Positions 23,399-46,029 of a DNA stretch of 64,000 nucleotides are shown piece by piece. This DNA comes from a virus (Duplodnaviria; Caudoviricetes). Position 1 is the first letter of the stretch. Every line of letters begins with the position of its first letter. The notes under the pieces were generated by a model. That model ran no database searches and was not told the DNA's origin. It saw only the letters and a list, made by a program, of their open reading frames with translations. The position numbers and the translations under genes were made by a program. The stretch lies in the IMG/VR virus record IMGVR_UViG_3300020190_000004; one strand, written 5' to 3'.

Positions 23399-23911
23399 TT
23401 AGATGATTATGTTTTTAAGATTAAACATTTGAGCGCTATCCCAGTTTCCACGAGGATTGTCCATTACCTGATAACTGCAGCCGTACATAACGGATACTTT
23501 TAAGTATAATTTTTTTCCAGCAGAATCTTCTACTTCAAATATCTTAAAAGCGTTAGCGCTATCACCAAAACCGACAACTGTAAAAGTTTCTGGCCGGGTT
23601 TGGAACGTGCCTTCAAATTTAGCACCGTCAGATATTTTGTTAATGAGTTTTTTGCCATTCATCTCCATTTGCATAGGGGTGATGACTCCTTCATTTAACA
23701 AAGACTCATTTGAAGACTTGTACATATTTTCAATAAAAGTCTCAAATTCTTTTCCAGACTTTTTGTCCTTTACGGTCATTTTGTCTCCACTAATCTTCTT
23801 TACCTCAAAGTTGAATCCCTGTACCGCATTACCTACAGTATCACCAACTTTAATGTCTTGGTTGGCTTTGCCTTCGTTCAAGAAGCTTTCAAATGTGTGT
23901 ATGTGTTTCAT
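23399..23911 (-). CDS. Leader-bearing putative internal head protein, two small beta domains
   Basis: Starts MKHIHTFESFLNE; internal SNESLLNEG. Confidence 0.7.
   Translation of the reverse strand: MKHIHTFESFLNEGKANQDIKVGDTVGNAVQGFNFEVKKISGDKMTVKDKKSGKEFETFIENMYKSSNESLLNEGVITPMQMEMNGKKLINKISDGAKFEGTFQTRPETFTVVGFGDSANAFKIFEVEDSAGKKLYLKVSVMYGCSYQVMDNPRGNWDSAQMFNLKNIII
23880..23911. repeat. 32-bp leader repeat copy 1
   Basis: AAGAAGCTTTCAAATGTGTGTATGTGTTTCAT, identical at 39184, 39570 and 39874; one mismatch at 34858. Confidence 0.95.
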
Positions 23912-23925
23912 AATAGATGTTTTTG

Positions 23926-24444
23926 TTATGCTTTTCTGTCATCTAGTCTAAAAGAAGATGTGTACATTCTCTGAGATGGCATATCCAGGTTTGTACCTGC
24001 CATGTCAAAGAACTTGGCAAAATCTGCATTATCTTCTAAAGAGCTGTAGTCAAATCCTAATCGGTCTTTTGGGTCATTTAGATTAGCAAAGATAAAGAAA
24101 GCATTTCCCTTCTCAGAAAAGCCTAATGTGTCAAGGTCGAATTTGCCAGGACAGCAGTCTTCAAGAATCTTTGGAAGAGCGTCAAGTGCTTTTTGTGCAA
24201 AGGCGTATATTTTTGTTTTACGATCGTAGATGGCTTTTGCATTTTCTTGTGCCCAGTCTACTGTATAGTACTTGTCTTTAGCAGCCTCGTTAAGGTCTTC
24301 GCCTTCTTCAAGTGCATCTTCTTTTATAGTGTATTTCTTTCCCTGAAATTCAAACTCTTTTAGACCTTGCTTCTTTGCATTTGCCAAAGCAGCATGAAAT
24401 GCATTCTCGTTTAAGAAATTTTCAAATGATGATATGTGTTTCAT
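23926..24444 (-). CDS. Leader-bearing putative internal head protein
   Basis: Starts MKHISSFENFLNE; internal EDLNE. Confidence 0.7.
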   Translation of the reverse strand: MKHISSFENFLNENAFHAALANAKKQGLKEFEFQGKKYTIKEDALEEGEDLNEAAKDKYYTVDWAQENAKAIYDRKTKIYAFAQKALDALPKILEDCCPGKFDLDTLGFSEKGNAFFIFANLNDPKDRLGFDYSSLEDNADFAKFFDMAGTNLDMPSQRMYTSSFRLDDRKA

Positions 24445-24469
24445 AGTCTCTGATTTTTTTTTGACCAGA

Positions 24470-24478
24470 GTATATATC
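24470..24478 (-). promoter_or_regulatory. Putative late promoter GATATATAC
   Basis: About 25 nt upstream of the ATG at 24444; heads the 20306..24444 island. Confidence 0.6.
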
Positions 24479-24483
24479 AGGGA

Positions 24484-26286: not shown

Positions 26287-26379
26287 TATTTTCTTTTAGA
26301 TGTCTTTAAGTTTTAATTGTATAGATTATATTACAGTAAAGATTAAAGTTCTTAGAATGTCATTAGCTTAACTATTCTT

Positions 26380-28206: not shown

Positions 28207-28214
28207 TGATTTTT

Positions 28215-28256
28215 AATTATAGAATAAAATTAACCAAAATAATCATATAATGCAAA
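28215..28256 (-). promoter_or_regulatory. Putative host-RNAP early promoter, second copy
   Basis: TTTGCAT-N10-TTTTGGTTAATTTTATTCTATAATT, same architecture as 2079..2120; upstream of ligA. Confidence 0.6.
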
Positions 28257-28274
28257 CTTTTAAGCAACTTTTTT

Positions 28275-28754
28275 CTAAAAGTTATTAACAATTCTTTCTA
28301 GGTTTTCTGATCGCGTAAGTATTCGCCACGTCATATCATACAGCTGCTCTACAGTCGCAACAAATTCTATCCCGGGTTTATTCCACTCGTGTGGAGCAAT
28401 AAGAGACAAGAAAAGAGTGTTATCATCACGTGTATACAGATGATATACTTCACCGGCATCTGGTTTAAAGTTAAACTTTGCACGATACACCAAGAGGGAG
28501 ACTAATCTTCTTTCTTCTAGTTCTGTGTATTGCTTTTTAAGAAGTTCAACTTGCTCCAAAATTTGTTTCTTTTGCATCTCAACTTGCTCGTTCATGGCGG
28601 CAGCTGACTTGCTCAAGATAACACCCATTTCAGTAGGTCTGAATGCAGGTGCACTTATGTTATGCCCATAAGGAAGTAAGCCGGGATATACCGGCATCAT
28701 GTTCTCGTCCTTTTGCGTAGGATCTTTTTCCATCTTATTTAATTTGATGGTCAT
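28275..28754 (-). CDS. DUF2452-like protein
   Basis: LPYG....APAF, A...F.P..G..YHLY, FLSLI.P.EW motifs. Confidence 0.7.
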   Translation of the reverse strand: MTIKLNKMEKDPTQKDENMMPVYPGLLPYGHNISAPAFRPTEMGVILSKSAAAMNEQVEMQKKQILEQVELLKKQYTELEERRLVSLLVYRAKFNFKPDAGEVYHLYTRDDNTLFLSLIAPHEWNKPGIEFVATVEQLYDMTWRILTRSENLERIVNNF

Positions 28755-28882
28755 CTACAGCCATCGCATGTTTGCTTTTCATTATACCAGCAATTTCCTC
28801 AAAAGAATAAATTTGCCATGTAGTTTATATACAACAAAGGCTCTGGAGTTCCCAGAGCCATGTTGCGTTTGTGTTGTTTGAA

Positions 28883-29536: not shown

Positions 29537-29542
29537 ACTTTA

Positions 29543-31399: not shown

Positions 31400-31405
31400 T
31401 GCTTT

Positions 31406-31723
31406 TTAATCTTTTTTGGGTGTTTGTTTGTAATACTTTAGAATTAGTCCACTGAGAGGTTTCACGTGCTTTCTCCATTCTTCGTTAAGAATAAGTTCTA
31501 ACATAATCATTGGCCGGAACGTTTCTGAATCAATCCAGGTGTGGATCCTAAAGTCTTCATAATTGCCTGCGTATTTCTTTAAATAATCAGCAATTTCCCT
31601 CAGGCGGTCTGGGTTGTCCTGTAAGTCTTCCATTGTGAAGTGAAAGTGCTTATAAATTGACGGCCGGTCAACGCTTTGCTGTAAGCGCTCAATAATTTGA
31701 TTGTGTATATTCATGGGTTTCAT
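31406..31723 (-). CDS. Hypothetical protein
   Basis: 105 aa ORF with 4-nt overlap to the polymerase N-half stop. Confidence 0.6.
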   Translation of the reverse strand: MKPMNIHNQIIERLQQSVDRPSIYKHFHFTMEDLQDNPDRLREIADYLKKYAGNYEDFRIHTWIDSETFRPMIMLELILNEEWRKHVKPLSGLILKYYKQTPKKD

Positions 31724-33096
31724 TGTATATATTTTTTAAGTTGCTCAATTTCTTCTTCTATTTGCATGTAGTTTTTCTTGGCAACTTTGCGTTTTCCGTA
31801 GTATTCTGACAGAATTGTTCTAAAAGCACTGTCGGTATCTTTTTGAAAAACTGCGCCAGACGAGCACACAATTTCAGTGTTAAGATTTACCTCGGATTCT
31901 TTGGTAACATTTTTAACATATGATTCAGGTGATATGTTCCACTGTCTCATGATAGACGGATATAGTGATGCGAAGTCAAAAGAAACCACCCATTCATAAA
32001 GCCCCGTTTTTGGTTCTACGACAAATGCGCCTTCGTACTTTTCTCTTTTCTTAGTCTGTTTTTCCATTTTAGGAAAAACTCGTCCTCTTGTTTGAAACTC
32101 ACGAGCCATGGCTGCTTCTGCCATCCATATTGGACTGTATGCGCGGTTTGCTTCAACGCGTGTTATGTTACCCAGTGTTAAGAAAGTTTGAAGAGTATTG
32201 AGCTTTTTGTCTATCATTTCAACCAGTTTAGTGTCAACTGCGTTGTAGAATATATAAGACTCAAAGTCATTTTCATAAAGGTCTTGAAGAGTCCCGTTGT
32301 ATTTTACTTTAGGTATTCCTAAAGCAGTCTTTCCTACGAAATCAAGCGTGTTGTTTTCTTTGATGTCAATGACACGGTCCCATTTCTTATATACATCAAG
32401 GTAGTCAACAACAAGACGATGCTGTGGTAGTTTCATGTCGCCGCTAAGTTTGTGTGATGGCGAGCAGGGGGATGGATCTATATTAAGACGTTTACATCTG
32501 TTCATTAAGTATAGCCAGTCGAAGGCTATGAAGTTCCAGCCTGTAAGAAGAGGCATTTTCTGAACTGCTTTGTAAAAGAAACTTACAAGCATATCGTATT
32601 CACTCTTAAAGTAAAGATAGTTATACTCAACATCTTCTTTTAGGTGTTCAGTAATTCTTTTCTTAATGTTTAAGATTTGCGCAGATGTTAGAGGACGCGT
32701 GCCCATTGATATTAAACGATTCCCATTACAGAAAGTTATTGCAGTAACTGGAAACTTTGCTGTTTCAGGTTTAGGCCACTCGTCGCCAACTTCGGTTTCA
32801 ATATCAAGAAAGAATTTTTTAGGAACATTTGATGAATATATGTTTCGGGTTCTCTCTTCAGGTAGGGAATTTAAGTAATCTTCAATTCTCCACTTACTTA
32901 GAAATCTTGCTCGTTTTTTGCGAACAGGCTTCCCATCCCAAGAAAACATACCAGGCTCTGCTTTTTCTCCTGGGTTAACGTATTCCCATTCATACATCTG
33001 ATCCGACGGAATATCAAAAGTATCAATGGCAATATCGCCGTTTTCATCAAAATATGAAATTCTTAATCTACCGTCTTGTTGTTCGATGTCTATCAT
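31720..33096 (-). CDS. gp43A: Family B DNA polymerase, N-terminal half (3'-5' exonuclease + motif A)
   Basis: ExoI FLDIETE, ExoII TGWN...FD, ExoIII YNAVD, YEGAFV.EP, SFDFASLYPS; ends in the first fingers helix. Confidence 0.93.
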   Translation of the reverse strand: MIDIEQQDGRLRISYFDENGDIAIDTFDIPSDQMYEWEYVNPGEKAEPGMFSWDGKPVRKKRARFLSKWRIEDYLNSLPEERTRNIYSSNVPKKFFLDIETEVGDEWPKPETAKFPVTAITFCNGNRLISMGTRPLTSAQILNIKKRITEHLKEDVEYNYLYFKSEYDMLVSFFYKAVQKMPLLTGWNFIAFDWLYLMNRCKRLNIDPSPCSPSHKLSGDMKLPQHRLVVDYLDVYKKWDRVIDIKENNTLDFVGKTALGIPKVKYNGTLQDLYENDFESYIFYNAVDTKLVEMIDKKLNTLQTFLTLGNITRVEANRAYSPIWMAEAAMAREFQTRGRVFPKMEKQTKKREKYEGAFVVEPKTGLYEWVVSFDFASLYPSIMRQWNISPESYVKNVTKESEVNLNTEIVCSSGAVFQKDTDSAFRTILSEYYGKRKVAKKNYMQIEEEIEQLKKYIQ

Positions 33097-34168: not shown

Positions 34169-34171
34169 TTC

Positions 34172-34290: not shown

Positions 34291-34533
34291 TCACTTCTTA
34301 TCACCGTACAATTCGTGATAAGATTTTGTATGTTTAGATGCTTTTAGCATTTTCTTACCTTTAGTATCACCAGGCAGCTCTTTGTATGCATCGGGATCGT
34401 CATCGGGCATATCTGCTTGCTTTGCCATTTGAGACTTTTTCTTATCAATGGTACCTTTGCCAATCCCTTTAAAGTAAGGAGCGTCTTTTTCTGCCTCAGT
34501 TAAGAAGGTCTCAAATGTGCTTATGTGTTTCAT
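34291..34533 (-). CDS. Leader-bearing putative internal head protein
   Basis: Starts MKHISTFETFLTE. Confidence 0.7.
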   Translation of the reverse strand: MKHISTFETFLTEAEKDAPYFKGIGKGTIDKKKSQMAKQADMPDDDPDAYKELPGDTKGKKMLKASKHTKSYHELYGDKK

Positions 34534-34538: not shown

Positions 34539-34889
34539 TTATTTCTTTTTAGGATTGAAACCGGCCTTTCGGGCTTCTTTTGCCAAGTCGGTATCAGCTT
34601 TACCCCATGTGCCTTCACCGCCAGTCAAGAAGCTGTTTACGCGAGCATATGCCCATTGCTCTTGGCCTGCACCAGGGCGGTGACCAGACTTCCAAGCAGC
34701 CATGCCTCGACGGAATACTGCACGGATAATTCCTATTGGACAGCCAGACTCTTCTGCCTTGTTCTTAACACCAGTCTCTAATTCTTCGCTGTCAAGTGGG
34801 CCGCGGTCAGTTGATTGCTTGTCATCGTCTTCAGCTTCAAGTAAATAGCTTTCGTATAAGAAGCTTTCAAATGTGTGTATGCGTTTCAT
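34539..34889 (-). CDS. Leader-bearing protein with GHRPG...WAYARVNSF motif (DUF5824-like)
   Basis: Starts MKRIHTFESFLYESYLLE; payload motif recalled from other viral proteins. Confidence 0.7.
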   Translation of the reverse strand: MKRIHTFESFLYESYLLEAEDDDKQSTDRGPLDSEELETGVKNKAEESGCPIGIIRAVFRRGMAAWKSGHRPGAGQEQWAYARVNSFLTGGEGTWGKADTDLAKEARKAGFNPKKK

Positions 34890-34919: not shown

Positions 34920-34925
34920 TTTTTT

Positions 34926-35546
34926 TCATGGTTTTGCTATTAAGTACCCTGAAAGTTGATTGGCAAAATCAACGAAATCATTAACTAGGTTTTTGCTTAT
35001 TCTTTCGTCCGAAGTTCCGATGTTATGACAGCTAATAAAACCAATCAGATCTCCCTTAAGACCGCGAATAGGAATTACAACATTTTGAACGATTCCTTGG
35101 TTTATCATTTCACGAGCCATAACAGGATACTCATCACAGCAATGAGCATCAACTATAACCATATCTTCTTCAAAAAGAATGTTAAACAGTTTTGGAAATT
35201 CTGATACGAGCAGATTTTGGTATTCTCTTTTGATGCGAGCAATTCCAGGCGCAGTGGCTTCATATGTCATAGAGAATTTTTTCATACTTCTGCCGTTAAA
35301 GAATTTACCACCATTATGAAATTGTGATATTGCTACACGATCGAACTCATATTCTTCGCGAATCTTTTCAATGAATTCTGCTATATGGACCATTTCACCA
35401 ACGTCCGCGTGCTTGATTGCTTCTTCAGCATGTTGTTTCCTAATAGCTGCACGAGTATCTAGCCAATTCTTAACGACAACTGTTATGATAGCAATCATTA
35501 TCGAGGTAAAACCGGATATCAAAGATATTGTAACTGATTCGCTCAT
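34926..35546 (-). CDS. N-terminal TM + GAF-like domain protein (T4 holin T-like architecture)
   Basis: Hydrophobic helix at residues ~6-26, then a GAF-like pattern ending QNVVIPIRGLKGDLIGFISC. Confidence 0.55.
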   Translation of the reverse strand: MSESVTISLISGFTSIMIAIITVVVKNWLDTRAAIRKQHAEEAIKHADVGEMVHIAEFIEKIREEYEFDRVAISQFHNGGKFFNGRSMKKFSMTYEATAPGIARIKREYQNLLVSEFPKLFNILFEEDMVIVDAHCCDEYPVMAREMINQGIVQNVVIPIRGLKGDLIGFISCHNIGTSDERISKNLVNDFVDFANQLSGYLIAKP

Positions 35547-35686
35547 CTTCCTTGCCCCCTATAAGACTTTTTGTAGTTTTTTGAACTCTTAAGCTTAGAT
35601 GCTCTCTTTTTTGAATGAATTCCTGGTCTTTTTACTTTTTGCCTTTTTACAAAAGACTTTACTTCTGACGTTTTTGATCTTGCCAT
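35543..35686 (-). CDS. Small highly basic protein (47 aa) ending YRGQGR, missed by ORF track
   Basis: Manual translation MARSKTSEVKSFVKRQKVKRPGIHSKKRASKLKSSKNYKKSYRGQGR; its TGA overlaps the next ATG (ATGA). Confidence 0.75.
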   Translation of the reverse strand: MARSKTSEVKSFVKRQKVKRPGIHSKKRASKLKSSKNYKKSYRGQGR

Positions 35687-36228
35687 GTCTTAACCCATTT
35701 TTTGTAATCGTCGAAGCTCATAATTCCAATGCGTGTGTTGACGTCATCTTCGTCATCTTCTCCAAATTTATCACCAGAACCCACGTTTCCGTTAGCTGGT
35801 GGTGAAACATTACCCATGCCAGGTGTGTTAGGAGGTTGCGCAACCCCGGGAGGGACAGTAGCCGCAACTGCTTCATTCTTTTTTTTCTCGTCGTCTTCTT
35901 TCTTATCAGATATAAAGTCAATAAATGATTGAATAAGTGGATCTTGCTTGTCTCTTGTAGCTAATATATGACTAGCTCCAATGTTTGCCGAGTATTTACT
36001 ATATCTTACCAAGGGGCCGGTACTTAGGAATCCGGATATACTCCCTTCCTCTATGTGTTTAGGTAGCCCTTCGTGTTTAGTTTCTGCAAAATCCTTTAGC
36101 TGATCAAGGGTCATGCTGTCAGCTAAATCTTGTACCTCTCTGCTAGCTTTCGTGGGTTTCATATCACCTTTTTTAAGAGCGTATGCCATACCCATTAGCT
36201 TTTGCTGTGCTTGAGATACCGCAGGCAT
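35659..36228 (-). CDS. DUF3008-like N-terminal domain with Pro/Gly-rich linker
   Basis: MPA.SQAQQ..MG.A.A.K.G...S.....M...QL.DFA.TK..GLP motif. Confidence 0.65.
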   Translation of the reverse strand: MPAVSQAQQKLMGMAYALKKGDMKPTKASREVQDLADSMTLDQLKDFAETKHEGLPKHIEEGSISGFLSTGPLVRYSKYSANIGASHILATRDKQDPLIQSFIDFISDKKEDDEKKKNEAVAATVPPGVAQPPNTPGMGNVSPPANGNVGSGDKFGEDDEDDVNTRIGIMSFDDYKKWVKTWQDQKRQK

Positions 36229-36230
36229 GA

Positions 36231-36578
36231 TTAAGTAGTTTTTTGTTTCATTATTGCCTCGTGAACTCTTTCTCCCATTTTAGATAAAGTGTAGTACTTG
36301 GTGTTATTCTTTTCAACAACATTAAAGTAACGAGTATTTTTGTTAACCCATTTACGACTAGTGTTTCCGCCAGTTTCTTCGTTAACACTGTTGATGAATT
36401 CCATCAACTGTGTATGAGTCACTTTTTTCTTTTCTTTAACGAAAGATAGGATTCTTTCACGAATAGGAGCATTATCTGAAACCGCAGATTCTGGATGTTT
36501 CTCGGTGTATTTTCTCTTGATAACAACACGCCCTTCATTTATCATGAAGTCAGTAAAGTTATTTACGTATTTGTTCAT
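36231..36578 (-). CDS. Leader-bearing protein, possible winged-helix payload
   Basis: Starts MNKYVNNFTDFMINE; helix-turn-helix/wing-like C-half. Confidence 0.65.
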   Translation of the reverse strand: MNKYVNNFTDFMINEGRVVIKRKYTEKHPESAVSDNAPIRERILSFVKEKKKVTHTQLMEFINSVNEETGGNTSRKWVNKNTRYFNVVEKNNTKYYTLSKMGERVHEAIMKQKTT

Positions 36579-36600
36579 TTCCTGTCCTTATTTTAGTTTT

Positions 36601-36609
36601 GTATATATC
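36601..36609 (-). promoter_or_regulatory. Putative late promoter GATATATAC
   Basis: About 22 nt upstream of the ATG at 36578. Confidence 0.6.
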
Positions 36610-38376
36610 TTATGTAGTGTAAGGTAGACGGATAAAGTCATAATAAACATGCTTGTCATATGCTGACTTTATCTCAGTCCAGAAGCGCTGAACGCACTCC
36701 GGAACTTCCTTACAAAACTCATGATATGAATCTTTCTCAACAGCTTGGATAAACTTCTTAAAAGATTTTGAAGATGCATATGTAATATCAATATCCGGGA
36801 CATCATCACCAAACATTGCTCGCATAGCATTTTGTTCCAACTCAACAAATTTCTTATCTCTCTCAAAGTAAGTAATTGTGCAAGGGTTAAAATCTTGAGA
36901 CAGAACTTTATATATGTTGGATATTAGAGGATGAGTTGATATCTTGTAGCCGATAAATAAGTCGTGATAATCTTCAATAAACTTTGACAAGATCTTGCGA
37001 ATTGTTGGCAATTCCAAAACAAAATCACGATTAGCACTAAATACATCATGTATTAAAAAGCAACGATGTTTGTTAAGTTTCATTAATCTTTCTGCTTCAA
37101 GAATAACCGAGTTATTGAGTTTTGAACAATCAACAACTATAACGTTAACGTCTTCCTTGCCTTTAGGATTTTTCCTCGGGGAACCAAAGAAAGACTGCAG
37201 CAACAGAACTGCTTTTTCATAATCAACTTCCTTCTTGGGTTTTTCACTGTCATCAGCTTCGCGCAAGATAGTGTTAAATTCCAAAAAGCTGTAATCATCA
37301 GATATGATAGAATTAATTTCTTCTATCTTGGAGTTAAACTCATTAACTACCATTTCGCTTAGCAGTCCGCTAGGATACTTTGGTTTCCTGAGATTCGTTA
37401 AAAATACGGTAAACAGATATTCATATTTGCCGTTAGATTCAATGATTGCTCGTGTCTTTGGATTCTTAACCCATTTACCGTTGAACAATCCACTCTTATC
37501 CAGGAATTTAGGTCTCTCTAAGTCAGACTCTAGAAAGTCACGCCCTCTTCTGTCAACAAATTCGTTAAACACCTCAGAAACCAGCTCGATGTATGCTTCA
37601 TCGGGGTGGTGAGCAACCGGCTTGTGTTCATCAAGTCTCATTGAGTTTATGTGCTCGCAGATGTCGAGCAATAAGATGTCAAAAAGATGACTGCGTTTCT
37701 CAACTCGTCTTTCTTCTTCTATAACATCAGCGATCTTAAACAGTTCAGAGCCTGATTCTATTACAAGAGCTTCAATGTTATTGCTTTGTGTATTGAGTTT
37801 ACCGCTTGTGTAAACACTTGATTCATTAAGAGAAACCAATTCATATTCATGCTTAGCCATTCTAACTAAACTATCAATCGTTTCACTATCAAGTCTTCCT
37901 TCAAAGACAGGCATGTTTGACTCAACTCCAAAGATTCCGCCCCAGCGTTCAAAGATCTTGTTGTCTTTAACTTCATTGGTAACATCCCATTGACGATTGC
38001 GAACAGTAATGTCTGTAAGCATTAACCCATTCTTTGGGCGACGATCATACTCGGTGTTAAGAGGTTTTTTATTGGGAAACCAAGAGAAACCAAACCTGTG
38101 GCGAGGTGGTATTGCTTTCTTAATGTCAGCAGGCAGATTCTCAATATAAGAGATTGCTTGCTCGTATAGATCATTGACTGTGCGATCTATTTTTGATAAA
38201 GGTGCTTTGCCGTTCTTACCGTAGAAGTAGATTTTGTAATCATGTGGGTTCTTTTCAAAAGCGAATCGATACGCGTCGAACTTTTCTGTTACTCTAATCT
38301 CTCCTTCCAGTACCTCACGGAGACCTTTTTCTCCGACCTTTTTGTAGAGGTCCCGAATGTTTTTTATTCCGGCCAT
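36610..38376 (-). CDS. RNA-ligase-like nucleotidyltransferase domain protein with degenerate C-terminal Rossmann-like domain
   Basis: VTEKFDA resembles ligase motif I (KxDG); later PVFEG.L and IEALVI resemble motifs III/IV; no leader. Confidence 0.5.
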   Translation of the reverse strand: MAGIKNIRDLYKKVGEKGLREVLEGEIRVTEKFDAYRFAFEKNPHDYKIYFYGKNGKAPLSKIDRTVNDLYEQAISYIENLPADIKKAIPPRHRFGFSWFPNKKPLNTEYDRRPKNGLMLTDITVRNRQWDVTNEVKDNKIFERWGGIFGVESNMPVFEGRLDSETIDSLVRMAKHEYELVSLNESSVYTSGKLNTQSNNIEALVIESGSELFKIADVIEEERRVEKRSHLFDILLLDICEHINSMRLDEHKPVAHHPDEAYIELVSEVFNEFVDRRGRDFLESDLERPKFLDKSGLFNGKWVKNPKTRAIIESNGKYEYLFTVFLTNLRKPKYPSGLLSEMVVNEFNSKIEEINSIISDDYSFLEFNTILREADDSEKPKKEVDYEKAVLLLQSFFGSPRKNPKGKEDVNVIVVDCSKLNNSVILEAERLMKLNKHRCFLIHDVFSANRDFVLELPTIRKILSKFIEDYHDLFIGYKISTHPLISNIYKVLSQDFNPCTITYFERDKKFVELEQNAMRAMFGDDVPDIDITYASSKSFKKFIQAVEKDSYHEFCKEVPECVQRFWTEIKSAYDKHVYYDFIRLPYTT

Positions 38377-38393
38377 TTATGTTTGTTTTATAG

Positions 38394-38765
38394 TTATATT
38401 TTTCCTGTTAAGCGTATTCTTTTTTCGTCATCATCAACTAAATGATGTCCTACAACATCTTCAATTACTTCTGCCATTTTCTTAGTCTTATCACCAGCTG
38501 GTGGTGTCTGAATTTCCACAGAACCGTTATAGTAAGTTGGAAGTTTTTTTGCCTTTGCATCAAATCCTGCAGAGTTCAAGGCTTTTGCTATTTCCTCAGC
38601 TTCGTCAAACATAATTGTTCCTATCTCTAAGTGGTCGCGATAGTTTAACAGAGTTATAGTAGAAACTTCATGACCGTTTACTACTTCTCCGAGTTCAATA
38701 CGACTCATGTCTACAAGCTTCTTGCCTTCATTTAAGAAACTTTCAAATGTGTGTAGATGTTTCAT
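38394..38765 (-). CDS. Leader-bearing putative internal head protein
   Basis: Starts MKHLHTFESFLNE. Confidence 0.7.
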   Translation of the reverse strand: MKHLHTFESFLNEGKKLVDMSRIELGEVVNGHEVSTITLLNYRDHLEIGTIMFDEAEEIAKALNSAGFDAKAKKLPTYYNGSVEIQTPPAGDKTKKMAEVIEDVVGHHLVDDDEKRIRLTGKI

Positions 38766-38777
38766 AGCTTACTTGTT

Positions 38778-39215
38778 TTATTCAACTGCAATCTCAACGC
38801 CACCGCTTCCTGTAGAATAAGCGGTAATGCTTATTCGAGAACCGTCTGATAACATTATTCTTACATAAGAATTTTGTCCATCTTCGTCTTCAAGAATAGC
38901 TTTAATCTTCTTTCCTATATGATCCTTTAATGAAGGGTCGGTAGTTCTTGCATCTTCATTAAGCTCATCTTCGTTCAAGCTCTCTTTTACTAGAACCGAT
39001 TGCATACCAAATCTTTCTTTAGCCAATTGTATAGCCATTCTACTTTTTGGCGTATCGTCTAACTCAAAAACTGTAGGCCTTACCTGGTCATATTGGATCT
39101 TATTGCCATCAAGGTCCTTTTTGAACGATGAAACTGCTTTGGAGGCTAGACTAACTGACAGTTTCTTTCCTGAGTTTTCATTTAAGAAGCTTTCAAATGT
39201 GTGTATGTGTTTCAT
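38778..39215 (-). CDS. Leader-bearing putative internal head protein, two domains
   Basis: Starts MKHIHTFESFLNE; internal ESLNEDELNE. Confidence 0.7.
   Translation of the reverse strand: MKHIHTFESFLNENSGKKLSVSLASKAVSSFKKDLDGNKIQYDQVRPTVFELDDTPKSRMAIQLAKERFGMQSVLVKESLNEDELNEDARTTDPSLKDHIGKKIKAILEDEDGQNSYVRIMLSDGSRISITAYSTGSGGVEIAVE
39184..39215. repeat. 32-bp leader repeat copy 2
   Basis: Identical to 23880..23911. Confidence 0.95.
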
Positions 39216-39229
39216 ACTAATTCTATTTT

Positions 39230-39601
39230 TTATTTTTTGCCAAACATATCGGTTTCTCTACTACTTGGTCGTTTTGTTTTGCCAGCTTGTATAATTGATT
39301 CCAATTCATCGTATAGATCTTCGGCTTTTGTTATATCTTTTTTGTCTACTCTAAAGTAACCTTTATTAGTATTCATAAAATAATGGTCATCTTTGTTAGC
39401 AACAAAGAAAGTAGACGCTGGAGAAAAAGCAAAAGCTAAATTGACTGCTCTCACCTGGCCATTAGTAATTTCTATGGTAGAAGAACCACCTTTTAAGAGT
39501 TTTGCAAGTTTATCTAGTATTGCATCACCTGTGTTTTTTGCTCCTTCTAAATAAACAATCTTTTCATTTAAGAAGCTTTCAAATGTGTGTATGTGTTTCA
39601 T
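39230..39601 (-). CDS. Leader-bearing putative internal head protein
   Basis: Internal ATG at 39601 begins MKHIHTFESFLNE; track start 39622. Confidence 0.7.
   Translation of the reverse strand: MKHIHTFESFLNEKIVYLEGAKNTGDAILDKLAKLLKGGSSTIEITNGQVRAVNLAFAFSPASTFFVANKDDHYFMNTNKGYFRVDKKDITKAEDLYDELESIIQAGKTKRPSSRETDMFGKK
39570..39601. repeat. 32-bp leader repeat copy 3
   Basis: Identical to 23880..23911. Confidence 0.95.
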
Positions 39602-39608
39602 TGTAATA

Positions 39609-39905
39609 CTATATTTTTGCAATTGAAGTTACTTTCTTGCCTTTTTTCTCCGCATCATTAGGGTCTGCGTAGTAGAGAAGGTTGGCCTGAATCAGCCTAT
39701 TGAAAATCTCGTCTTTTACAATCTCAAAGTCAATGCTATCAGAAGAGTTTTCCCATGTTTCAGCAACATACTCTGGGTCAATCCATCCATACCCTGCCTT
39801 AATGTTCTTTACCATGTTGGCAAAGTCCAGCTCAAAAGTTTTAACCGCACCTTCATTAAGAGTGGCTTCATTCAAGAAGCTTTCAAATGTGTGTATGTGT
39901 TTCAT
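39609..39905 (-). CDS. Leader-bearing putative internal head protein
   Basis: ATG at 39905 begins MKHIHTFESFLNEATLNE. Confidence 0.7.
   Translation of the reverse strand: MKHIHTFESFLNEATLNEGAVKTFELDFANMVKNIKAGYGWIDPEYVAETWENSSDSIDFEIVKDEIFNRLIQANLLYYADPNDAEKKGKKVTSIAKI
39874..39905. repeat. 32-bp leader repeat copy 4
   Basis: Identical to 23880..23911. Confidence 0.95.
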
Positions 39906-40192
39906 TTTAGATTCCATGTTCTTTTGTCATCCATATCAAGTATTTCAATGCCTAATTGCTTAACAGTATTTTCTAAATTAGATTGTTCTTCCTGATCTCC
40001 GCTTTTTATGTATTCAATAACATCTCTGAATGATTGAAAAAAATGCTTTTCTCGCATCTGTGTTTTTATCTTATCCCAATTGTAATAAATTGCATGAAGC
40101 AGACCGCTAACACCAGCGGAAGTTAGCGCTAATTCATTTATTTCTTGTTCATTCAAGAAGTTTTCGAATGTGCTTATGTGTTTCATGTCCAT
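39902..40192 (-). CDS. Leader-bearing putative internal head protein
   Basis: Starts MDMKHISTFENFLNEQEINE. Confidence 0.7.
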   Translation of the reverse strand: MDMKHISTFENFLNEQEINELALTSAGVSGLLHAIYYNWDKIKTQMREKHFFQSFRDVIEYIKSGDQEEQSNLENTVKQLGIEILDMDDKRTWNLK

Positions 40193-40195
40193 GTA

Positions 40196-40204
40196 GTATA
40201 TATT
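40196..40204 (-). promoter_or_regulatory. Late promoter variant AATATATAC
   Basis: Immediately upstream of the ATG at 40192. Confidence 0.4.
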
Positions 40205-41091
40205 TATGCCAGGTCAGACGGAAAAGGAAGCTTGGCGTCTGTCAGCTTTTGCTTAAACTCCGTCATGATATCTTCCCGCTTATCAGGGAACTTAAAGTCT
40301 CCGCCGTCAATCAGACCACGCAAACTTTCATAGGTCATGATCTCAGAAACCTTGTGACCACCGTTAAAGAGTAGTTCCACTATCTCCTGCGGAACCCGCG
40401 TAATATCTTTGTCAAACGCTCGAAGAAGGTCTGCATTTTTTTTCAGCCCGCGTGCACCTTCAAAGGTTTTGCGTACTTGTACAACTCCCTGATTCATACG
40501 TATCACATATGCCTTGTACTCAGCAGTTTCACCTTTGCCGGTTTGCTTGGTGATCTCGTAAAAGCAATTTCCAATTGCGGCCATCAGCAATATGTTTCTG
40601 TAAGCACCTTTGTACTGTGATTCGCCTGCTCGAAAGTCTGGCGAGTGGTAGATAAACTTACTCCATTCCAGGTCAATCGACATCATTAAATCTACTTGGC
40701 CAATTCCGTTTGCTGAATCCCCGGCAACAGGAACGCCAATGCTTACTTGCTGTAACCCTTTTTGCATTAAGGTGGAATATCCTAAAGACATTAACTTTTC
40801 ATCTAATGCCATCAATGAATTTTCCAAAGAGACTCCTAAGAAACCAGCAATCTTGTCAGCCGAGACCGCGATATCTATATCTCCGGAAGTAGCTTCCGGT
40901 AATTTCTTACCCGCACTTCCAATTACTGCAGCATCATCACCAATTCCTACCAATCCGATTTGAGGAAAAATGTTCTTTACAATCCAATCCACAGTAGGCT
41001 GAACTTGGTTCTGTTGAAAAGGTACAGCATTCTCAATAGAGTTGCCACTTTCAAGAATGAATTGTTCAAACAACTTGACGTACTGCCTCAC
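40204..41091 (-). CDS. Leader-bearing Pol-beta-superfamily nucleotidyltransferase
   Basis: GTG start (M)RQYVKLFEQFILE; hG-S motif VIGSAG, SGDIDIAV, third Asp in QVDLM. Confidence 0.75.
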   Translation of the reverse strand: MRQYVKLFEQFILESGNSIENAVPFQQNQVQPTVDWIVKNIFPQIGLVGIGDDAAVIGSAGKKLPEATSGDIDIAVSADKIAGFLGVSLENSLMALDEKLMSLGYSTLMQKGLQQVSIGVPVAGDSANGIGQVDLMMSIDLEWSKFIYHSPDFRAGESQYKGAYRNILLMAAIGNCFYEITKQTGKGETAEYKAYVIRMNQGVVQVRKTFEGARGLKKNADLLRAFDKDITRVPQEIVELLFNGGHKVSEIMTYESLRGLIDGGDFKFPDKREDIMTEFKQKLTDAKLPFPSDLA

Positions 41092-41624
41092 TAGAATCCT
41101 GCCTTTTGTGCCTCTTTGCGGTCTAACCACTTTGCGTTAACTACGTCGTACCAGATGTTTGAATCACTTGACCCAGGAAGAATAAAGTTAGTCCCGTTAG
41201 AACCTCCGCTTGTGTGCGTGTAAGAGTAGTTTAGGTTTGTCCAAATGCATGGTTCAAACTCAAAGTCTGAACCATCTTCAGCGGTAGCTTTTGAAATCTT
41301 TGGAAAGCTTCCGCCGCCAAAGAAGGAAAGATATACCTCTTTGAACCCATACTGCATGATGCCCAATGCATCACCTGTCACAGGCTTAGATACCAATTTG
41401 ATACGGTTACCCGCGTCTTCAATAGCAAAGTCAGTTGGCCAGTCCACGCCTTTATCCTTAAGGAAAGTTGCTAACGCTGGTCCTGCATTTTCCAGGATAT
41501 CAGCCTTAAGCGTAGCCTCGTCTTTGAATTTGTCATCACTAACGTACTTTACGTTTTCGTTAAGGTCAGCAGCTTCATTCACACCTTTGTTGATGTAAGT
41601 TTCAAAAGTTTTTAAGTGTTTCAT
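41091..41624 (-). CDS. Leader-bearing putative internal head protein
   Basis: Starts MKHLKTFETYINKGVNEAADLNE. Confidence 0.7.
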   Translation of the reverse strand: MKHLKTFETYINKGVNEAADLNENVKYVSDDKFKDEATLKADILENAGPALATFLKDKGVDWPTDFAIEDAGNRIKLVSKPVTGDALGIMQYGFKEVYLSFFGGGSFPKISKATAEDGSDFEFEPCIWTNLNYSYTHTSGGSNGTNFILPGSSDSNIWYDVVNAKWLDRKEAQKAGF

Positions 41625-41883
41625 TGTATTTTGTTATTTTGACTATTAAATCAGTGGTGCCGGGTATCACGCGATGGATAACGCCGGCAGGTATTTTAAT
41701 CACTGTATATATCTTTTCTGGTAGTTGGTTATCAAACTGAAATTGCCAATCATTTTCGTTAAGAGGTTCAACGATTCTGTCCTCTTCATCCCAATGCCAT
41801 TTATATTCTGACCAGTCAGTATTTACAAAAAAAGTCCGTATGACTACGGACTCATTGATTTTTTCTTCTTTATAAGGTTTCAT
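41602..41883 (-). CDS. Small cupin-like protein
   Basis: WHWDEEDR.V...W.FQFD..LP...IP.G..HRV pattern; start at 41883 coupled to the holin stop (TAATG). Confidence 0.6.
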   Translation of the reverse strand: MKPYKEEKINESVVIRTFFVNTDWSEYKWHWDEEDRIVEPLNENDWQFQFDNQLPEKIYTVIKIPAGVIHRVIPGTTDLIVKITKYNETLKNF

Positions 41884-42050
41884 TAAGCTTTGTCTACGAT
41901 TGACCAAATTGTACCAGTTAATGTGATAACACCACCGATGATTTCAGTCACAGTTGTTTCGTCAGTTAAGCCTTTCATTACCACGATACCACCTACGAAT
42001 GTAAGAGTATGACGGATGATACCTAGAATCTGTTCTTTTGTTAGTTTCAT
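41883..42050 (-). CDS. Putative small holin (55 aa, two TM), missed by ORF track
   Basis: Manual translation MKLTKEQILGIIRHTLTFVGGIVVMKGLTDETTVTEIIGGVITLTGTIWSIVDKA; resembles Pam3 gp28-type putative holins. Confidence 0.75.
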   Translation of the reverse strand: MKLTKEQILGIIRHTLTFVGGIVVMKGLTDETTVTEIIGGVITLTGTIWSIVDKA

Positions 42051-42071
42051 TTTTTCTATTTTATTTTTTTT

Positions 42072-42080
42072 GTATATATC
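42072..42080 (-). promoter_or_regulatory. Putative late promoter GATATATAC
   Basis: About 21 nt upstream of the holin ATG at 42050. Confidence 0.6.
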
Positions 42081-42619
42081 TACCAGGGTGCATCGGACTG
42101 AAGTCCTAACTGCTTATTAAAGAGCGTGCTGGCGTAACAAGCCCAGAACCCCGCGGTAGTAGGGTCCATCTTTTTTTGTAAATCGCACTGTTGGCGTGCC
42201 CAGAAAGATGCAGAAGCCACAGGATCGTCATTCTTGATGGAAAGACCCGTGGTGTCTCCCCATTGAATTTGCATTGCCAAGATATTTCCATCTTCATCTT
42301 CTTTCCCGCTGTTGTGATACACCGTAAACTTTTTATCTCCACCACGAAATGGTGTGTCGAGTTCTACGTCAATCATTTTGCCGTCAGGTGTTTCAAACTT
42401 TGCCTTTTTACCCACTTCCAGATTCTTGGCCATCCAAGCAGCTTTATCGGAGAGTATGATGTTATCTTCGTCCCAGTATTTCTTTGTCTCTTCAAAAAGA
42501 TCTTTATAGGCTTGACTGCCTAAACGGTAGACAGAATTGGTTATGTCCAACCCATTTTCCATGTGGTAGCGGAATCCTTCGGAGACCTGGAAGTCTTCAA
42601 ATGTCTTTACGTATTTCAT
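42080..42619 (-). CDS. Leader-bearing protein with conserved phage domain (DUF6321-like)
   Basis: Starts MKYVKTFEDFQVSE; payload KKF.VY...GD..GLSIK.DDP...SF.AR..CD...TAGFW.C. Confidence 0.7.
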   Translation of the reverse strand: MKYVKTFEDFQVSEGFRYHMENGLDITNSVYRLGSQAYKDLFEETKKYWDEDNIILSDKAAWMAKNLEVGKKAKFETPDGKMIDVELDTPFRGGDKKFTVYHNSGKEDEDGNILAMQIQWGDTTGLSIKNDDPVASASFWARQQCDLQKKMDPTTAGFWACYASTLFNKQLGLQSDAPW

Positions 42620-43320
42620 ATCTTAATGCTAAAATGTTCTTTAACTGCTTCTTCAATTCCTAATGCATAGGACCAGATATCTTCGGAAATCTTTTTTTCG
42701 CCAGCTTTATTGAAAGTAATCAGCGGCCAGTAAATAGTATTTTTTGTGATAGCTGCACTCGGGAAAGTCATTTCATAGTACTGTCCGCCCTTTTCACCAA
42801 ACGCATGAACTACTAAGCACTCTCCATAGTACTTACCTATTTCATCTTTTTGCATACAGATACCACCAATGGCTTTTCCTCCAGTTTCTTCTGACCATCT
42901 TGCTGCATTACCAAAGCACTGATTCCTTGTACCACCTGCTTCAATCCATTCTGCTTCAACACTCTTAACCAGTTCATCTAAAATTGCTACAATTACTGCT
43001 TGAATACTGATGAAATTTGAAGATGATATCTTGCCTTCTGCGTCAACTGTGAAATCTTTGAACCATCCTGGTCTTTTAGCCGGATCTTGAGCATTCCAGT
43101 GATTTGCAGATTCTTCAGCGTTCGTCAGAGCCGTTTTTCCCGCAGCTGTGTTTTTCCACTTGCCTGACTTTAGCATTGAGAGCGTTTTTGATCTTATTGA
43201 TGAATCACCCTTTGATGCATAAAATACATTGCCACCTAAGCCTGTGCTATAGACAGTTTCATTCAGATACTGAAATCCTTCAGAGACTTGAAAGTCTTCA
43301 AATGTTTTGACGTATTTCAT
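42616..43320 (-). CDS. Leader-bearing putative internal head protein
   Basis: Starts MKYVKTFEDFQVSEGFQYLNE; first 16 aa identical to the neighbour. Confidence 0.7.
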   Translation of the reverse strand: MKYVKTFEDFQVSEGFQYLNETVYSTGLGGNVFYASKGDSSIRSKTLSMLKSGKWKNTAAGKTALTNAEESANHWNAQDPAKRPGWFKDFTVDAEGKISSSNFISIQAVIVAILDELVKSVEAEWIEAGGTRNQCFGNAARWSEETGGKAIGGICMQKDEIGKYYGECLVVHAFGEKGGQYYEMTFPSAAITKNTIYWPLITFNKAGEKKISEDIWSYALGIEEAVKEHFSIKI

Positions 43321-43742
43321 TTGAACATACTTTTATTGTAGATAACTAATCCTAAGTAAGGATTGTTATTTTTACCTTCTGTTGGATCATAAACGCCATC
43401 AGCCTTCTTTTCTTTTGCCATTTGCATAATTTTTTGCCCACCATATTTTTGCGCGTCGGGGACTAATAAAATTTTAGCATCATTAGAAAGTTCATATTCA
43501 TCCGAACCAGCATAATAATCATCAGATTCATAATGGGCCGAACTGTCTGCAGTAACTGAAAAGTAGCTTCCTTTCCCTAAGACCGAACCCATAGTATCCA
43601 TATCTTCATCTCCGCTTTCATACTCAAAAAAAGCCTTTTCTAACTTACCAGAATCCGTAGTTAGGTATTTCTTTTTGAATTCAGCACCTGTAATTAGTTC
43701 TGATTCATTCATAAAACTTTCGTATGTCTTTACGTATTTCAT
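43317..43742 (-). CDS. Leader-bearing protein, possible ADP-ribosyltransferase-like fold
   Basis: Starts MKYVKTYESFMNE; GKGSYFS....SAHY, L...AKIL, ADGV...LVIYN pattern. Confidence 0.55.
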   Translation of the reverse strand: MKYVKTYESFMNESELITGAEFKKKYLTTDSGKLEKAFFEYESGDEDMDTMGSVLGKGSYFSVTADSSAHYESDDYYAGSDEYELSNDAKILLVPDAQKYGGQKIMQMAKEKKADGVYDPTEGKNNNPYLGLVIYNKSMFK

Positions 43743-43748
43743 TCTAAT

Positions 43749-44117
43749 TTATTTATTCATCTCTTGAGTCTTCTTCTTTAACTCTTCGAGAAAGTTTGTC
43801 CATATCACATTAGCAGCTTTCAGGTTTTTCTTCTTTTCCGGGTCCTTGGTCCTTTCAATAGCAACCTTTCCACGCTGCTGCATCACCAAGGCAGCTTGCA
43901 CCTTGTGCGCATGCTCTCGGTCAATGCCTTTAATAATCTCAATGCCTTTTTCCGCCGTCTCAGCGTCTTTGAAGCCCAAGCCATGAATTGTGCCTTCTGG
44001 ATCCTCGTCAGTGTACAAATCCGAGTGCTTGCTTGAACCGGCTGGTTGACCTGGTTTTCTAGGGGTTCTTTTATCAGCTTCCGCAATCCAAGATTCGTAT
44101 GTCTTTACGTATTTCAT
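43749..44117 (-). CDS. Leader-bearing conserved phage protein
   Basis: Starts MKYVKTYESWIAE; HSDLYTDEDP.GTI.GLGFKD motif. Confidence 0.7.
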   Translation of the reverse strand: MKYVKTYESWIAEADKRTPRKPGQPAGSSKHSDLYTDEDPEGTIHGLGFKDAETAEKGIEIIKGIDREHAHKVQAALVMQQRGKVAIERTKDPEKKKNLKAANVIWTNFLEELKKKTQEMNK

Positions 44118-44154
44118 TTTTGGTTAGCGCGCTTTGTATTTTTTGTCATTCACT

Positions 44155-44658
44155 TTAAGAAAGCAATTTAATAGCTTTCGGTGGTATCTTGCCCAGATAT
44201 ACAATTTCATCCGATTGCTTGTAGTAATCATCTCTTGATATCTTTTTATCAGCTTTTACATCAATCATTAGTTTAGGTGGTATCTCAATTCCTATTGAAA
44301 ATAAATTGGGATCTAGTTGTGTACCGTCTATCTGCAACAATACTCCATCATACTCGTATCTACGCGGTAAGTAATGAAAACTCACAATATCTGATACATT
44401 GTCCAAAGATGACAGCCAAACTCCTTCGAACAATTCACCTTTCAATCCTCCTCCGTGAGTACCAGCTTTTGGGCGAGAGGGTATCAATCCTTCCTTTTCT
44501 ACCTTATCATAGTAAGCTTGACGCATCACTAAATGGTATAAAGGCTGTTTTGTGTTAAAAGGTTCATCAGATTGGATAGATTGCAAATAATCTAACCCAA
44601 CTCGCATATCTTTATTGCCTTCATCCAAGAAGCTCTCGTATGTCTTTACCCACTTCAT
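44155..44658 (-). CDS. Leader-bearing ADP-ribosyltransferase/Tpt1-like fold protein
   Basis: Starts MKWVKTYESFLDE; LYH...EGL.P, GVWLSS, VLLQID, EIVY.G.IPP..I. Confidence 0.6.
   Translation of the reverse strand: MKWVKTYESFLDEGNKDMRVGLDYLQSIQSDEPFNTKQPLYHLVMRQAYYDKVEKEGLIPSRPKAGTHGGGLKGELFEGVWLSSLDNVSDIVSFHYLPRRYEYDGVLLQIDGTQLDPNLFSIGIEIPPKLMIDVKADKKISRDDYYKQSDEIVYLGKIPPKAIKLLS
44626..44658. repeat. 33-bp leader repeat, second subfamily, copy 1
   Basis: CAAGAAGCTCTCGTATGTCTTTACCCACTTCAT, identical at 45997..46029. Confidence 0.95.
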
Positions 44659-44951
44659 CTCTTGCTGATCTTGTTACTTGAAATGGCTCTTTGCCTGCTA
44701 CACTTAAACCTGGCTATCTCTTCGTCTCTCTTGTGTAGGTGTTTCTGACTTACACCGCTGTTAACACGCTCCCTCCAAAGATTAAAACTTTTTCTCTTTA
44801 ATTCAGCACGCATCAACTTAATAGTTTCAGATTCGCTGAGACCAAACTGAGCCTTGATTGCCTCAAAAGGTGTTCTGTCCTCCCACGCCATTTCTATGAT
44901 GCGATCTACATTCTCACTTGATATGCTCTTGTATGTCTTTACGCATTTCAT
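44655..44951 (-). CDS. TIGR03643/DUF2805-like protein with degenerate leader
   Basis: DRIIEMAWEDRTPFEAI..QFGL.E...I.LMR..LK..SF.LWR.RV; preceded by MKCVKTYKSISSE. Confidence 0.8.
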   Translation of the reverse strand: MKCVKTYKSISSENVDRIIEMAWEDRTPFEAIKAQFGLSESETIKLMRAELKRKSFNLWRERVNSGVSQKHLHKRDEEIARFKCSRQRAISSNKISKR

Positions 44952-45253
44952 TAGTCTTGCTTATCTTGTTGATATTGCCAAAGTTCTTCATAAGAAGTCA
45001 TCCATCCGTTTTCTTTGGCAATTCTTTCAGTATTACTGTTTGCTTGCAATAGAAAAGAAATTACTGCATCAAAAGCTTTTTTGAAGTCAGCTTCTTTAAC
45101 GCGATCCCAATAACCAACACCTATGTAGTCTTTAATCACATAGAATGGATATGCCGGGTCTTTTACGCTTTTGGTTCTGCGAGTTTGCAAATGAACAGAC
45201 TTTGGATCCGCATTTTCATTCAAAAAACTCTCGTATGTCTTTACGTAATTCAT
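44951..45253 (-). CDS. Leader-bearing putative internal head protein
   Basis: Starts MNYVKTYESFLNE. Confidence 0.7.
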   Translation of the reverse strand: MNYVKTYESFLNENADPKSVHLQTRRTKSVKDPAYPFYVIKDYIGVGYWDRVKEADFKKAFDAVISFLLQANSNTERIAKENGWMTSYEELWQYQQDKQD

Positions 45254-45258
45254 ATTTC

Positions 45259-46029
45259 TTAAAATTCATTCCAAAATTTAGCTATACGGTCATACACACG
45301 TTTTTGGTCTTCTTTAGATATCATTTTTAACCATGTCCATTCTTCTGGATAGATTTCATTCAATATAAAGTAAATGAAATCGTTGAGGTTATCAAAATGT
45401 TTTGTAGGGTCGCCGTAATCATTGTAAACTCGATTTAGCGCGGTATTTAGGTGTGTATTGATTTCAGCATTTAGTTGGTGATACTTTTCTTGCGGCAATT
45501 TTCCGTTTTCGTCAGCAAACTTTTTAACAAAATCGTCCAGTTGTCGATTCATAGCCTCGCGGTATTTATCGCCATACTCAGTTGCATCAAATAAGTGATG
45601 TACTTCATGATTGATGGCTCTTACAAATTCTCCGCTCCAGATTCTTTCTGGTGCTTTCATCATAGTCTCAATCAAATCTTGCAATTCCTTTACATAGTCT
45701 TTGTCAAAATCTCCGTCGTTGTAAGCAAGCTCAACAAGATTGTATCGGTACTTTGGTTTTCTAAAGTAATGAGCAAGTCCTAACGTTATGTCCAGTGTAT
45801 CATAATTTATTGATGCCGCGTCATGCCTATCTGGATCTATGGTAACATTAAATTCAACGCCGTCTATCGAAAATATGTAGTCGTCCTCAAATTTAACCAG
45901 CTGTGCTGCAATAGCAGCTGCTTTGCTTTTTAGCGTTGATAAAACTTTGTCAACCATTTTGTTCGCTTTATCAAACCTCTGAACAAAACTTTCATTCAAG
46001 AAGCTCTCGTATGTCTTTACCCACTTCAT
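45259..46029 (-). CDS. Leader-bearing zincin-like (HExxH) protein
   Basis: Starts MKWVKTYESFLNE; AINHEVHHLFD followed by a downstream AE. Confidence 0.65.
   Translation of the reverse strand: MKWVKTYESFLNESFVQRFDKANKMVDKVLSTLKSKAAAIAAQLVKFEDDYIFSIDGVEFNVTIDPDRHDAASINYDTLDITLGLAHYFRKPKYRYNLVELAYNDGDFDKDYVKELQDLIETMMKAPERIWSGEFVRAINHEVHHLFDATEYGDKYREAMNRQLDDFVKKFADENGKLPQEKYHQLNAEINTHLNTALNRVYNDYGDPTKHFDNLNDFIYFILNEIYPEEWTWLKMISKEDQKRVYDRIAKFWNEF
45997..46029. repeat. 33-bp leader repeat, second subfamily, copy 2
   Basis: Identical to 44626..44658. Confidence 0.95.

Follow-up and report, generated by a model that had tools for sequence, protein, structure and literature searches.

DNA-identical coding leaders on unrelated genes of an uncultured T4-like lake phage, and their possible role in the exchange of payload cassettes

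Introduction

The internal proteins (IPs) of phage T4 have only a packaging leader in common and their genes occupy variable hotspots between conserved genes (PMC12373910, PMC3012670). The work presented here concerns a larger family of coding leaders found in a stretch of 64,000 nucleotides (nt) of viral DNA, IMG/VR record IMGVR_UViG_3300020190_000004 (hereafter the window), which originates from an uncultured T4-like lake phage. A 13-residue tag, M-K-x-[IVL]-x-T-[FY]-E-x-F-[LI]-x-E, which is encoded by a leader of ~39 nt and resembles the T4 capsid-targeting sequence, opens ~26-30 minus-strand genes between 22465 and 52122. The tagged genes are co-oriented and packed end to end in arrays, which have conserved core genes on either side. 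We refer to the part of each gene behind the leader as its payload.

When read directly, T4 ipII and ipIII do not differ over the 15 nt before the ATG or over the first 33 coding nt, so that identical leader DNA on unrelated neighbours is not new in kind. Repoila et al. (1994) reportedly proposed that conserved sequences around the T-even IP open reading frames (ORFs) mediate shuffling. Like the T-even IP loci, the window encodes unrelated small proteins with an N-terminal leader of ~10-13 residues ending in Glu. The leader resembles MKTYQEFIAE, with Glu following a hydrophobic-x motif (the protease site in the T4 system), and the unrelated payloads lie in loci which vary between relatives and have conserved genes as flanks. 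The likeness to the polymorphic T-even IP locus, already drawn in an earlier note made from the window sequence, is therefore apt. The differences are nevertheless considerable. There are ~30 tagged genes in the window compared to three in T4 and ~10 types in the T-evens; identity is limited to the coding leader and includes no common upstream block as it does for ipII and ipIII; and the window group includes enzymes that bear the tag, fused forms with several modules and remnants of leaders inside proteins. The host group also lacks Shine-Dalgarno sequences and has A-rich gene starts, and those of the window indeed lie in A-rich surroundings without a Shine-Dalgarno sequence. No gp21-type prohead protease (Peptidase_S77) was found in the window, nor was there a match in four partial relatives, where control genomes were equally silent.

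T4-type phages also shuffle ORFans as PeSL (promoter-early stem-loop) cassettes, by recombination at short repeats for which patches of <50 bp suffice (PMC2839356). PeSL repeats flank ORFans in hyperplastic regions and minicircles show their role in insertion, deletion and replacement (PMC2839356, PMC4122927). The two systems are alike in the presence of short repeats beside ORFans and in the proposed exchange by the phage's own homologous recombination. However, PeSLs are intergenic regulatory sequences of ~100 bp which bring a promoter and a terminator, and the product of exchange is a transcription unit, whereas the window repeat is coding, in frame and ~39 nt long and the product is a fusion of tag and payload. 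An intergenic promoter and stem-loop for each ORF, as expected of PeSLs, are not seen in the arrays, where genes abut or overlap; there is no promoter motif before each tagged gene, and the motif GATATATAC (see below) occurs only at the head of some arrays. CdiA-CT and Rhs toxin loci provide a further parallel: a conserved coding segment precedes variable modules, recombination there swaps these modules, and orphan modules occur. The likeness would lie in the conserved coding segment ahead of unrelated variable modules. In CdiA-CT and Rhs, the variable part is a C-terminal toxin, with its immunity gene, on a large delivery protein, in contrast to the modules of the window, which are small separate genes, tagged at the N-terminus and without apparent immunity partners.

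Our analysis addresses how the leaders came to be shared and whether they serve as joints at which payloads are exchanged. We consider that copying of leaders together with cassette exchange by the phage's own recombination at the leaders is the best explanation, with a probability of about one half. As far as we found, the scale of the system, an in-frame coding repeat as the sole flanking repeat, the region-specific leader subtypes, the conservation of leader DNA in two layers and the recurrence of the motif where the modules of fused proteins meet are apparently undescribed.

Results

Identical leader DNA on unrelated payloads

A 32-mer occurs in four exact copies, where zero are expected by chance, and in two further copies with one and three mismatches (Table 1). 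Reverse-complemented, it gives the opening 32 nt (ATG through base 2 of codon 11) of genes on the minus strand whose products start with MKHIHTFESFL. The single mismatch at 34858 replaces His by Arg and is polymorphic, since a database protein (P0001) which is 99% identical has His. Identity begins at the ATG, with none upstream, and ends at nt 32-41. The leaders are the sole repeat family between 22000 and 52500 and no longer repeats are present there. The same leader-region sequence is found in independent contigs of other samples and the repeats are therefore not an assembly artefact.

A second leader subfamily is located in a run of eight genes with MKYVK/MKWVK-type leaders, which start at 42619, 43320, 43742, 44117, 44658, 44951 (MKCVK), 45253 (MNYVK) and 46029. 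Two of these, 44658 and 46029, are identical over their first 33 nt, encoding MKWVKTYESFL. The pair uses the minority codons AAG, GAG, AGC, TTC and TTG, and the chance of a matching pair is 2.9e-4. Genes 42080-42619 and 42616-43320 have MKYVKTFEDFQVSEGF in common, with DNA only 79% alike over 67 nt.

The payloads are unrelated: an all-against-all BLASTP comparison, from which the first 14 residues had been removed, gave a single marginal match (E 2e-4). Genes 39230-39601 and 39609-39917 can be weakly aligned over 44 residues and both match one gene of the relative G001 at 35-37%. Pfam matches are few (DUF5824, DUF2805, a cytidylyltransferase-like domain and DUF5891). The earlier note had reported the five 32-mer sites, the 33-nt pair and its surrounding run, and the lack of relationship between payloads, and all of these stand.

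Table 1. Leaders, tagged genes and recombination genes in the window
Feature	Coordinates	Strand	Remarks
Exact leader core	23880..23911	-	start of gene 23399-23911, 170 amino acids (aa), no family
Exact leader core	39184..39215	-	gene 38778-39215, 145 aa
Exact leader core	39570..39601	-	gene 39230-39601, 123 aa; same as 39215 copy over 41 nt
Exact leader core	39874..39905	-	gene 39609-39905, 98 aa
Leader core, 1 mismatch	34858..34889	-	start of gene 34539-34889, payload module A (DUF5824)
Leader core, 3 mismatches (MKHLHTFESFL)	38734..38765	-	gene 38394-38765
33-nt leader	44626..44658	-	gene 44155-44658; same as 45997-46029 copy
33-nt leader	45997..46029	-	gene 45259-46029; same as 44626-44658 copy
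Run of eight genes, MKYVK/MKWVK-type leaders	42080..46029	-	unrelated payloads
Island of five tagged genes	38394..40192	-	starts 40186, 39905, 39601, 39215, 38765; between two conserved genes
Tagged gene	39902..40186	-	payload, codon 15 to stop, is the C-terminal half of the 176-aa gene of L033/L029
Leader-tagged gene, payload module B	34291..34533	-	adjoins module A gene
DUF2805 gene	44655..44951	-	whole domain (profile 1-71, residues 16-87) directly behind degenerate leader MKCVKTYKSISSE
Leader with population variants	50584..50622	-	50596, 50610 and 50613 linked; MKHVK to MKHIQ
Leader-tagged cytidylyltransferase-like enzyme	47106..47702	-	
UvsX-like recombinase	14303..15565	-	phage's own recombination machinery
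gp46/gp47-like SbcCD nuclease pair	9478..12247	-	recombination machinery
RuvC-like Holliday junction resolvase	58509..59168	-	

Two layers of DNA likeness

Codon usage in the window is weakly biased, with a mild preference for A-ending codons. Given genome codon usage, agreement over 32 nt encoding MKHIHTFESFL has a probability of 3.6e-4 for a pair and 2.7e-10 for four copies, and none of 100 shuffles yielded any 32-mer match. A stricter null, with leader- and position-specific codons drawn from 105 leaders of related phages, gave P=0.0098 for a pair and P=5e-6 for four. In view of the four-way values under both nulls, codon bias fails to explain leader identity, and the codon test by which the earlier note proposed that its reading might fall came out in its favour. 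The exact copies are a real excess over the family-wide codon pattern.

This pattern is itself pronounced. Among the 105 leaders, Lys2 is AAA in 86%, Ile4 is ATA in 79% (compared to 30% in genes generally), Thr6 is ACA in 89% (35%), Ser9 is AGY in 92% (29%), Phe7 is TTT in 91% and Phe10 is TTC in 56%, and this fixation extends across phages with only 50-85% identity in their core proteins. Other gene starts have the same but weaker tendency (ATA 0.38, ACA 0.51) and general N-terminal codon usage accounts for a small part of the pattern. Where two leaders have the same residue, the fraction with the same codon is 0.667 for pairs within the window, 0.64-0.66 when the window is compared to its relatives and 0.64 when the leaders are orthologous; the value expected from codon usage is 0.49, and orthologous payloads reach 0.59-0.62. 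At the level of the family, the silent sites of the leaders therefore look like an equilibrium, either selected or overwritten so often that orthology would leave no extra trace. Exact identity is not obligatory, since in G002 five leaders encode MKHIHTFESFL by five different DNA sequences.

Local copying of leaders

Neighbouring leaders are more alike than random pairs, with identities of 0.771 and 0.704 respectively in the window (permutation P=0.0002); the permutation gave P=0.0006 in L031. The positional clustering of leader subtypes described in the earlier note is thus borne out. With sample sizes equalised, the nearest relative of a window leader lies more often in its own genome than in another, with an excess of 1.67 nt of 39 (P=3.7e-5), and a similar own-genome excess is observed in G003, L030 and L031. 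Small sets of identical leaders, mostly neighbours, also occur in the relatives (30900/31524 in G001, 2974/3260 in L031 and three of five in L030). Exact copies of this kind, mostly on neighbours, require recent copying of leader DNA, and such copying from gene to gene is well supported.

Leader subtype tracks genome region across phages, while the payloads found there differ. His or Ser at leader residue 5 is present in 36 of 43 leaders beside the 588-aa and Hsp20 genes and in 2 of 31 in the region corresponding to 41091-47702, counts which are not corrected for kinship. Within lake populations, two or three linked changes in the 50622 leader are the sole differences in contigs of 557-1229 nt, which is suggestive of a short patch. 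Other short variant patches occur outside the leaders. For example, in two runs the 308-aa gene has 11 linked single-base variants within 70 nt (40339-40408), with identical flanks, and these would represent a short recombination patch in the population.

Payload turnover between relatives

Relatives were obtained as four viral contigs from a degenerate pattern scan and as ten metagenome loci from a protein scan; we use our own handles (G001, L031 and the like) where they must be distinguished. A megablast search of positions 38000-47000 against the phage collection gave no match, and the 588-aa protein used as query revealed no related loci among the viral contigs. Core genes of the relatives are syntenic with 50-88% amino-acid identity, and orthologues are lacking for most tagged genes. 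Gene content varies at the site flanked by the 588-aa gene (36610-38376) and the 308-aa gene (40204-41130): the five tagged genes found there in the window are replaced by none in G001, one in G003 and one to three different tagged genes in the others. The 308-aa gene itself has a tag-like start, MKQYVKLFEQFI, in relatives. The window copy is without that ATG; its longest frame begins at a GTG further upstream and its true start is uncertain.

In both L033 and L029, where the flanking gene has 88% identity, a tagged gene of 176 aa comes after an orthologue of 39230-39601. In L033, the payload of the 40186 gene sits behind an extra 79-aa module and homology begins at window codon 15. A second comparison involves L031 and L036, whose shared payload is ~97% identical in DNA with a 123-nt insertion or deletion (indel) exactly after leader codon 13, the near-identity being limited by its own ATG and that of the next gene.

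Read data consisted of four lake runs in the form of k=31 contigs, which break at repeated leaders: contig ends are located at 39204, 39186-39590, 39573-39903, 44629-44655 and 46000-46026. Contig joints from 41624 to 50595, 41621 to 42057 and 35326 to 40932 were discarded, as their sides are of 21-24 nt.

Payloads have been gained, lost, permuted, fused and placed behind different leaders; the fixed order and content across relatives which the earlier note had named as the contrary outcome is not observed. Flux of payload cassettes at the leaders is well supported.

Modules A and B and the joints of fused proteins

Modules A (DUF5824) and B are arranged differently among the relatives. They are adjacent in the window, each with its own leader, and 1.5 kb apart in G001 with five tagged genes between them. 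They are fused as leader-B-A in G002 and L036 and as leader-A-B in G003, with leader-like remnants at the joints. Among the 120 homologues of module A listed of 361 found, A stands alone in 82, as B-A in 33 and as A-B in four, and at least five different modules occur upstream of A in these listed homologues, in each case with a hydrophobic-x-E motif at the joint; the extra module seen in L033 is among them.

The window and G001 copies of payload A have 89% identity, whereas the leaders share only 4 of 13 residues and DNA homology begins at codon 18. The window leader of payload A matches the identical leader group at 31 of 32 nt. A swap of the whole leader between window and G001 was considered and dropped, since the homologues, including the closer one, L050, keep the tail FLYESYLLE and the changes lie in codons 5-9, where 6 of 13 bases differ in L050. 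A short conversion patch or fast point evolution would fit better. The L050 difference fits a patch which could have been copied from an MKHIH-type leader, stepwise mutation being possible.

Fused multi-module tagged proteins are found in G002 (L010 5094-5654), G003 (L012 9792-10352), L033 (437-967), G001 (13270) and G003 (15138). They retain leader-like x-[FY]-E-x-x-x-E remnants at their internal joints, and the head protease may cut them into pieces.

A DUF2805 domain behind a leader

The DUF2805 family is also carried by other organisms in the lake samples and is a cellular family without a leader. In all four runs, contig depth over the window gene is 3- to 4-fold higher, with loose ends at 44856-44904; other lake organisms therefore have a near-exact copy of the same domain. 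The gene is probably a captured one and its capture likely recent.

Discussion

Leader homology and alternative explanations

The explanation that we favour comprises two layers. Position-specific leader codons (ATA for Ile, ACA for Thr, AGY for Ser, TTT for Phe7 and TTC for Phe10) are kept across the group and, on top of this, subsets of leaders have been copied, either by short-patch conversion or through the reuse of a resident leader before a new payload. Payload modules undergo exchange, deletion, insertion, fusion and splitting, and the joint falls at a leader or at an x-[FY]-E-x-x-x-E remnant, with the consequence that a tagged in-frame product always results. The UvsX and gp46/47 system could use the leaders, over 30-40 nt, as short homologies which preserve the frame: among the leaders of one array, this would lead to unequal exchange, deletion and conversion and, in mixed infections, payloads lying between two leaders could be swapped. 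That leader homology itself causes the junctions is plausible, at about even odds. The proposal of the earlier note that leaders act as homology arms thus holds for recent leader copying and cassette flux, while the causal role of the homology is inferred.

Several observations weigh against this explanation. The arrays are without spacers and any gene-sized indel must end beside a leader, so that the breakpoints at leaders foreseen in the earlier note, although present at leader/payload boundaries and leader-like motifs, would be expected anyway; moreover, selection for tagged products would give the same junctions after illegitimate recombination. About 33 contigs of the same population, retrieved with exact payload proteins as queries, all have the window gene order with no structural variants, and BLASTP reveals no payload paralogues, some of which frequent unequal crossing-over should produce. 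G001 and G002 lack the own-genome leader excess when sizes are equalised. Payload-A leaders are partly graded (MKHIHTFESFLYE, MKHIKTYEDFLYE, MKHIQTYEDFLYE, MKHINTFENWLWE, MSHVKLYEEFLWD), such that fast point evolution is possible. The synonymous match of leaders within genomes equals that between genomes and that of orthologous leaders; the likeness is thus for the most part a codon pattern at equilibrium, which nucleotide selection could produce without recombination. Finally, the L031/L036 indel is flanked by just a 4-nt TGAA microhomology, the near-identical block stops at the first five bases of the next leader and not inside it, and the right end of the segment replaced between window and L033 is the spacer before a core gene, not a leader.

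These last three observations, together with the whole DUF2805 domain of a leaderless cellular family behind a degenerate leader, are those expected if illegitimate or microhomology recombination occurred at gene boundaries and only products with a working tag survived, leader DNA being mechanistically idle. We judge this unlikely, since it leaves unexplained both the exact leader DNA on unrelated neighbours and the own-genome excess, and T4-type machinery, present here, favours short homologies (PMC2839356). Rather unlikely too, if a little less so, is a function of the leader DNA or RNA itself, in translation starts lacking a Shine-Dalgarno sequence or as a regulator site, with independent payload turnover. 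The codons fixed across phages, the equal synonymous match within genomes, between genomes and for orthologues, and the weaker lean of other gene starts all argue for it. However, native leaders are not less structured than synonymous recodings (mean z 0.1-0.3 overall): selection for unfolded mRNA had no effect in this test in the window or G001 (P 0.45 and 0.69), the result in G002 being marginal (P 0.02). Four identical copies are still improbable under the position-specific null, G002 uses five encodings of one peptide, and neighbour clustering and region-specific subtypes are left unexplained. A recent tandem duplication of whole genes, whose payloads then diverged very fast, would account for identical leaders being mostly adjacent (39215, 39601, 39905) and for the weak alignment and common G001 match of genes 39230-39601 and 39609-39917. 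We find it very improbable: payload lengths differ without similarity, the 23911 copy is 15 kb away, and loss of all protein similarity with every synonymous leader site intact is not credible. Chance or general codon bias, in favour of which there is only the mild preference for A-ending codons, is negligible in view of the weak bias, the expectation of 3.6e-4 for a pair and the shuffles.

A stronger proposal, which we advance only tentatively and consider rather doubtful, is that the leader DNA has evolved into an in-frame joint for recombination, comparable to an attachment site but protein-coding and kept homogeneous by conversion. Through it, cargo modules would move from slot to slot, among dozens of these, and from one co-infecting T4-like Bacteroidota phage to another, the motif in fusions serving as both protease site and exchange point. 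A coding repeat which guarantees in-frame, correctly addressed recombinants would, if the idea is true, explain rapid diversification and provide a simple rule for locating cargo genes and exchange points in uncultured phages. The comparative data make it testable, as they include the same payload behind different leaders, both module orders and DUF2805 behind a leader. By analogy with T4, the tag may load proteins into the head. Since the T4 proteins Ip1-3 each disable a different GmrSD restriction enzyme (PMC12373910), this phage group would, if the tag marks head-loaded, injected proteins, carry a very large and rapidly reshuffled first-strike set.

Other features of the window

Besides the genes in Table 1, the window encodes a portal protein, gp2-, gp4- and gp55-like proteins, a gp41-type helicase, topoisomerase II subunits, an NAD ligase, ribonucleotide reductase and a split B-family DNA polymerase. 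The motif GATATATAC is present at 3858, 7895, 9471, 24470, 34911, 36601, 41705, 42072 and 52145, all on the minus strand, with the form GATATATAA at a single site, 34911. These nine occurrences compare to 1.06 expected and are always on the coding strand just upstream of genes, among them the portal gene and the genes that head several leader arrays. The motif is a candidate late promoter, possibly recognised together with the gp55-like sigma factor (5312-5656). Upstream of tagged genes, the late promoter of T4, TATAAATA, was not found.

The B-family polymerase consists of two genes ~14 kb apart, one with the exonuclease and N-terminal part (31720-33096) and the other with the C-terminal part (16238-17416), which matches positions 497-839 of an 856-position profile. 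A protein of the ClpP-like 'head maturation protease' family (210 aa, 18230-18862) is encoded within the replication block, far from the portal gene. A 47-residue ORF at 35543-35686, strongly rich in Lys and Arg, overlaps the end of a DUF3008 gene and is kept in G001.

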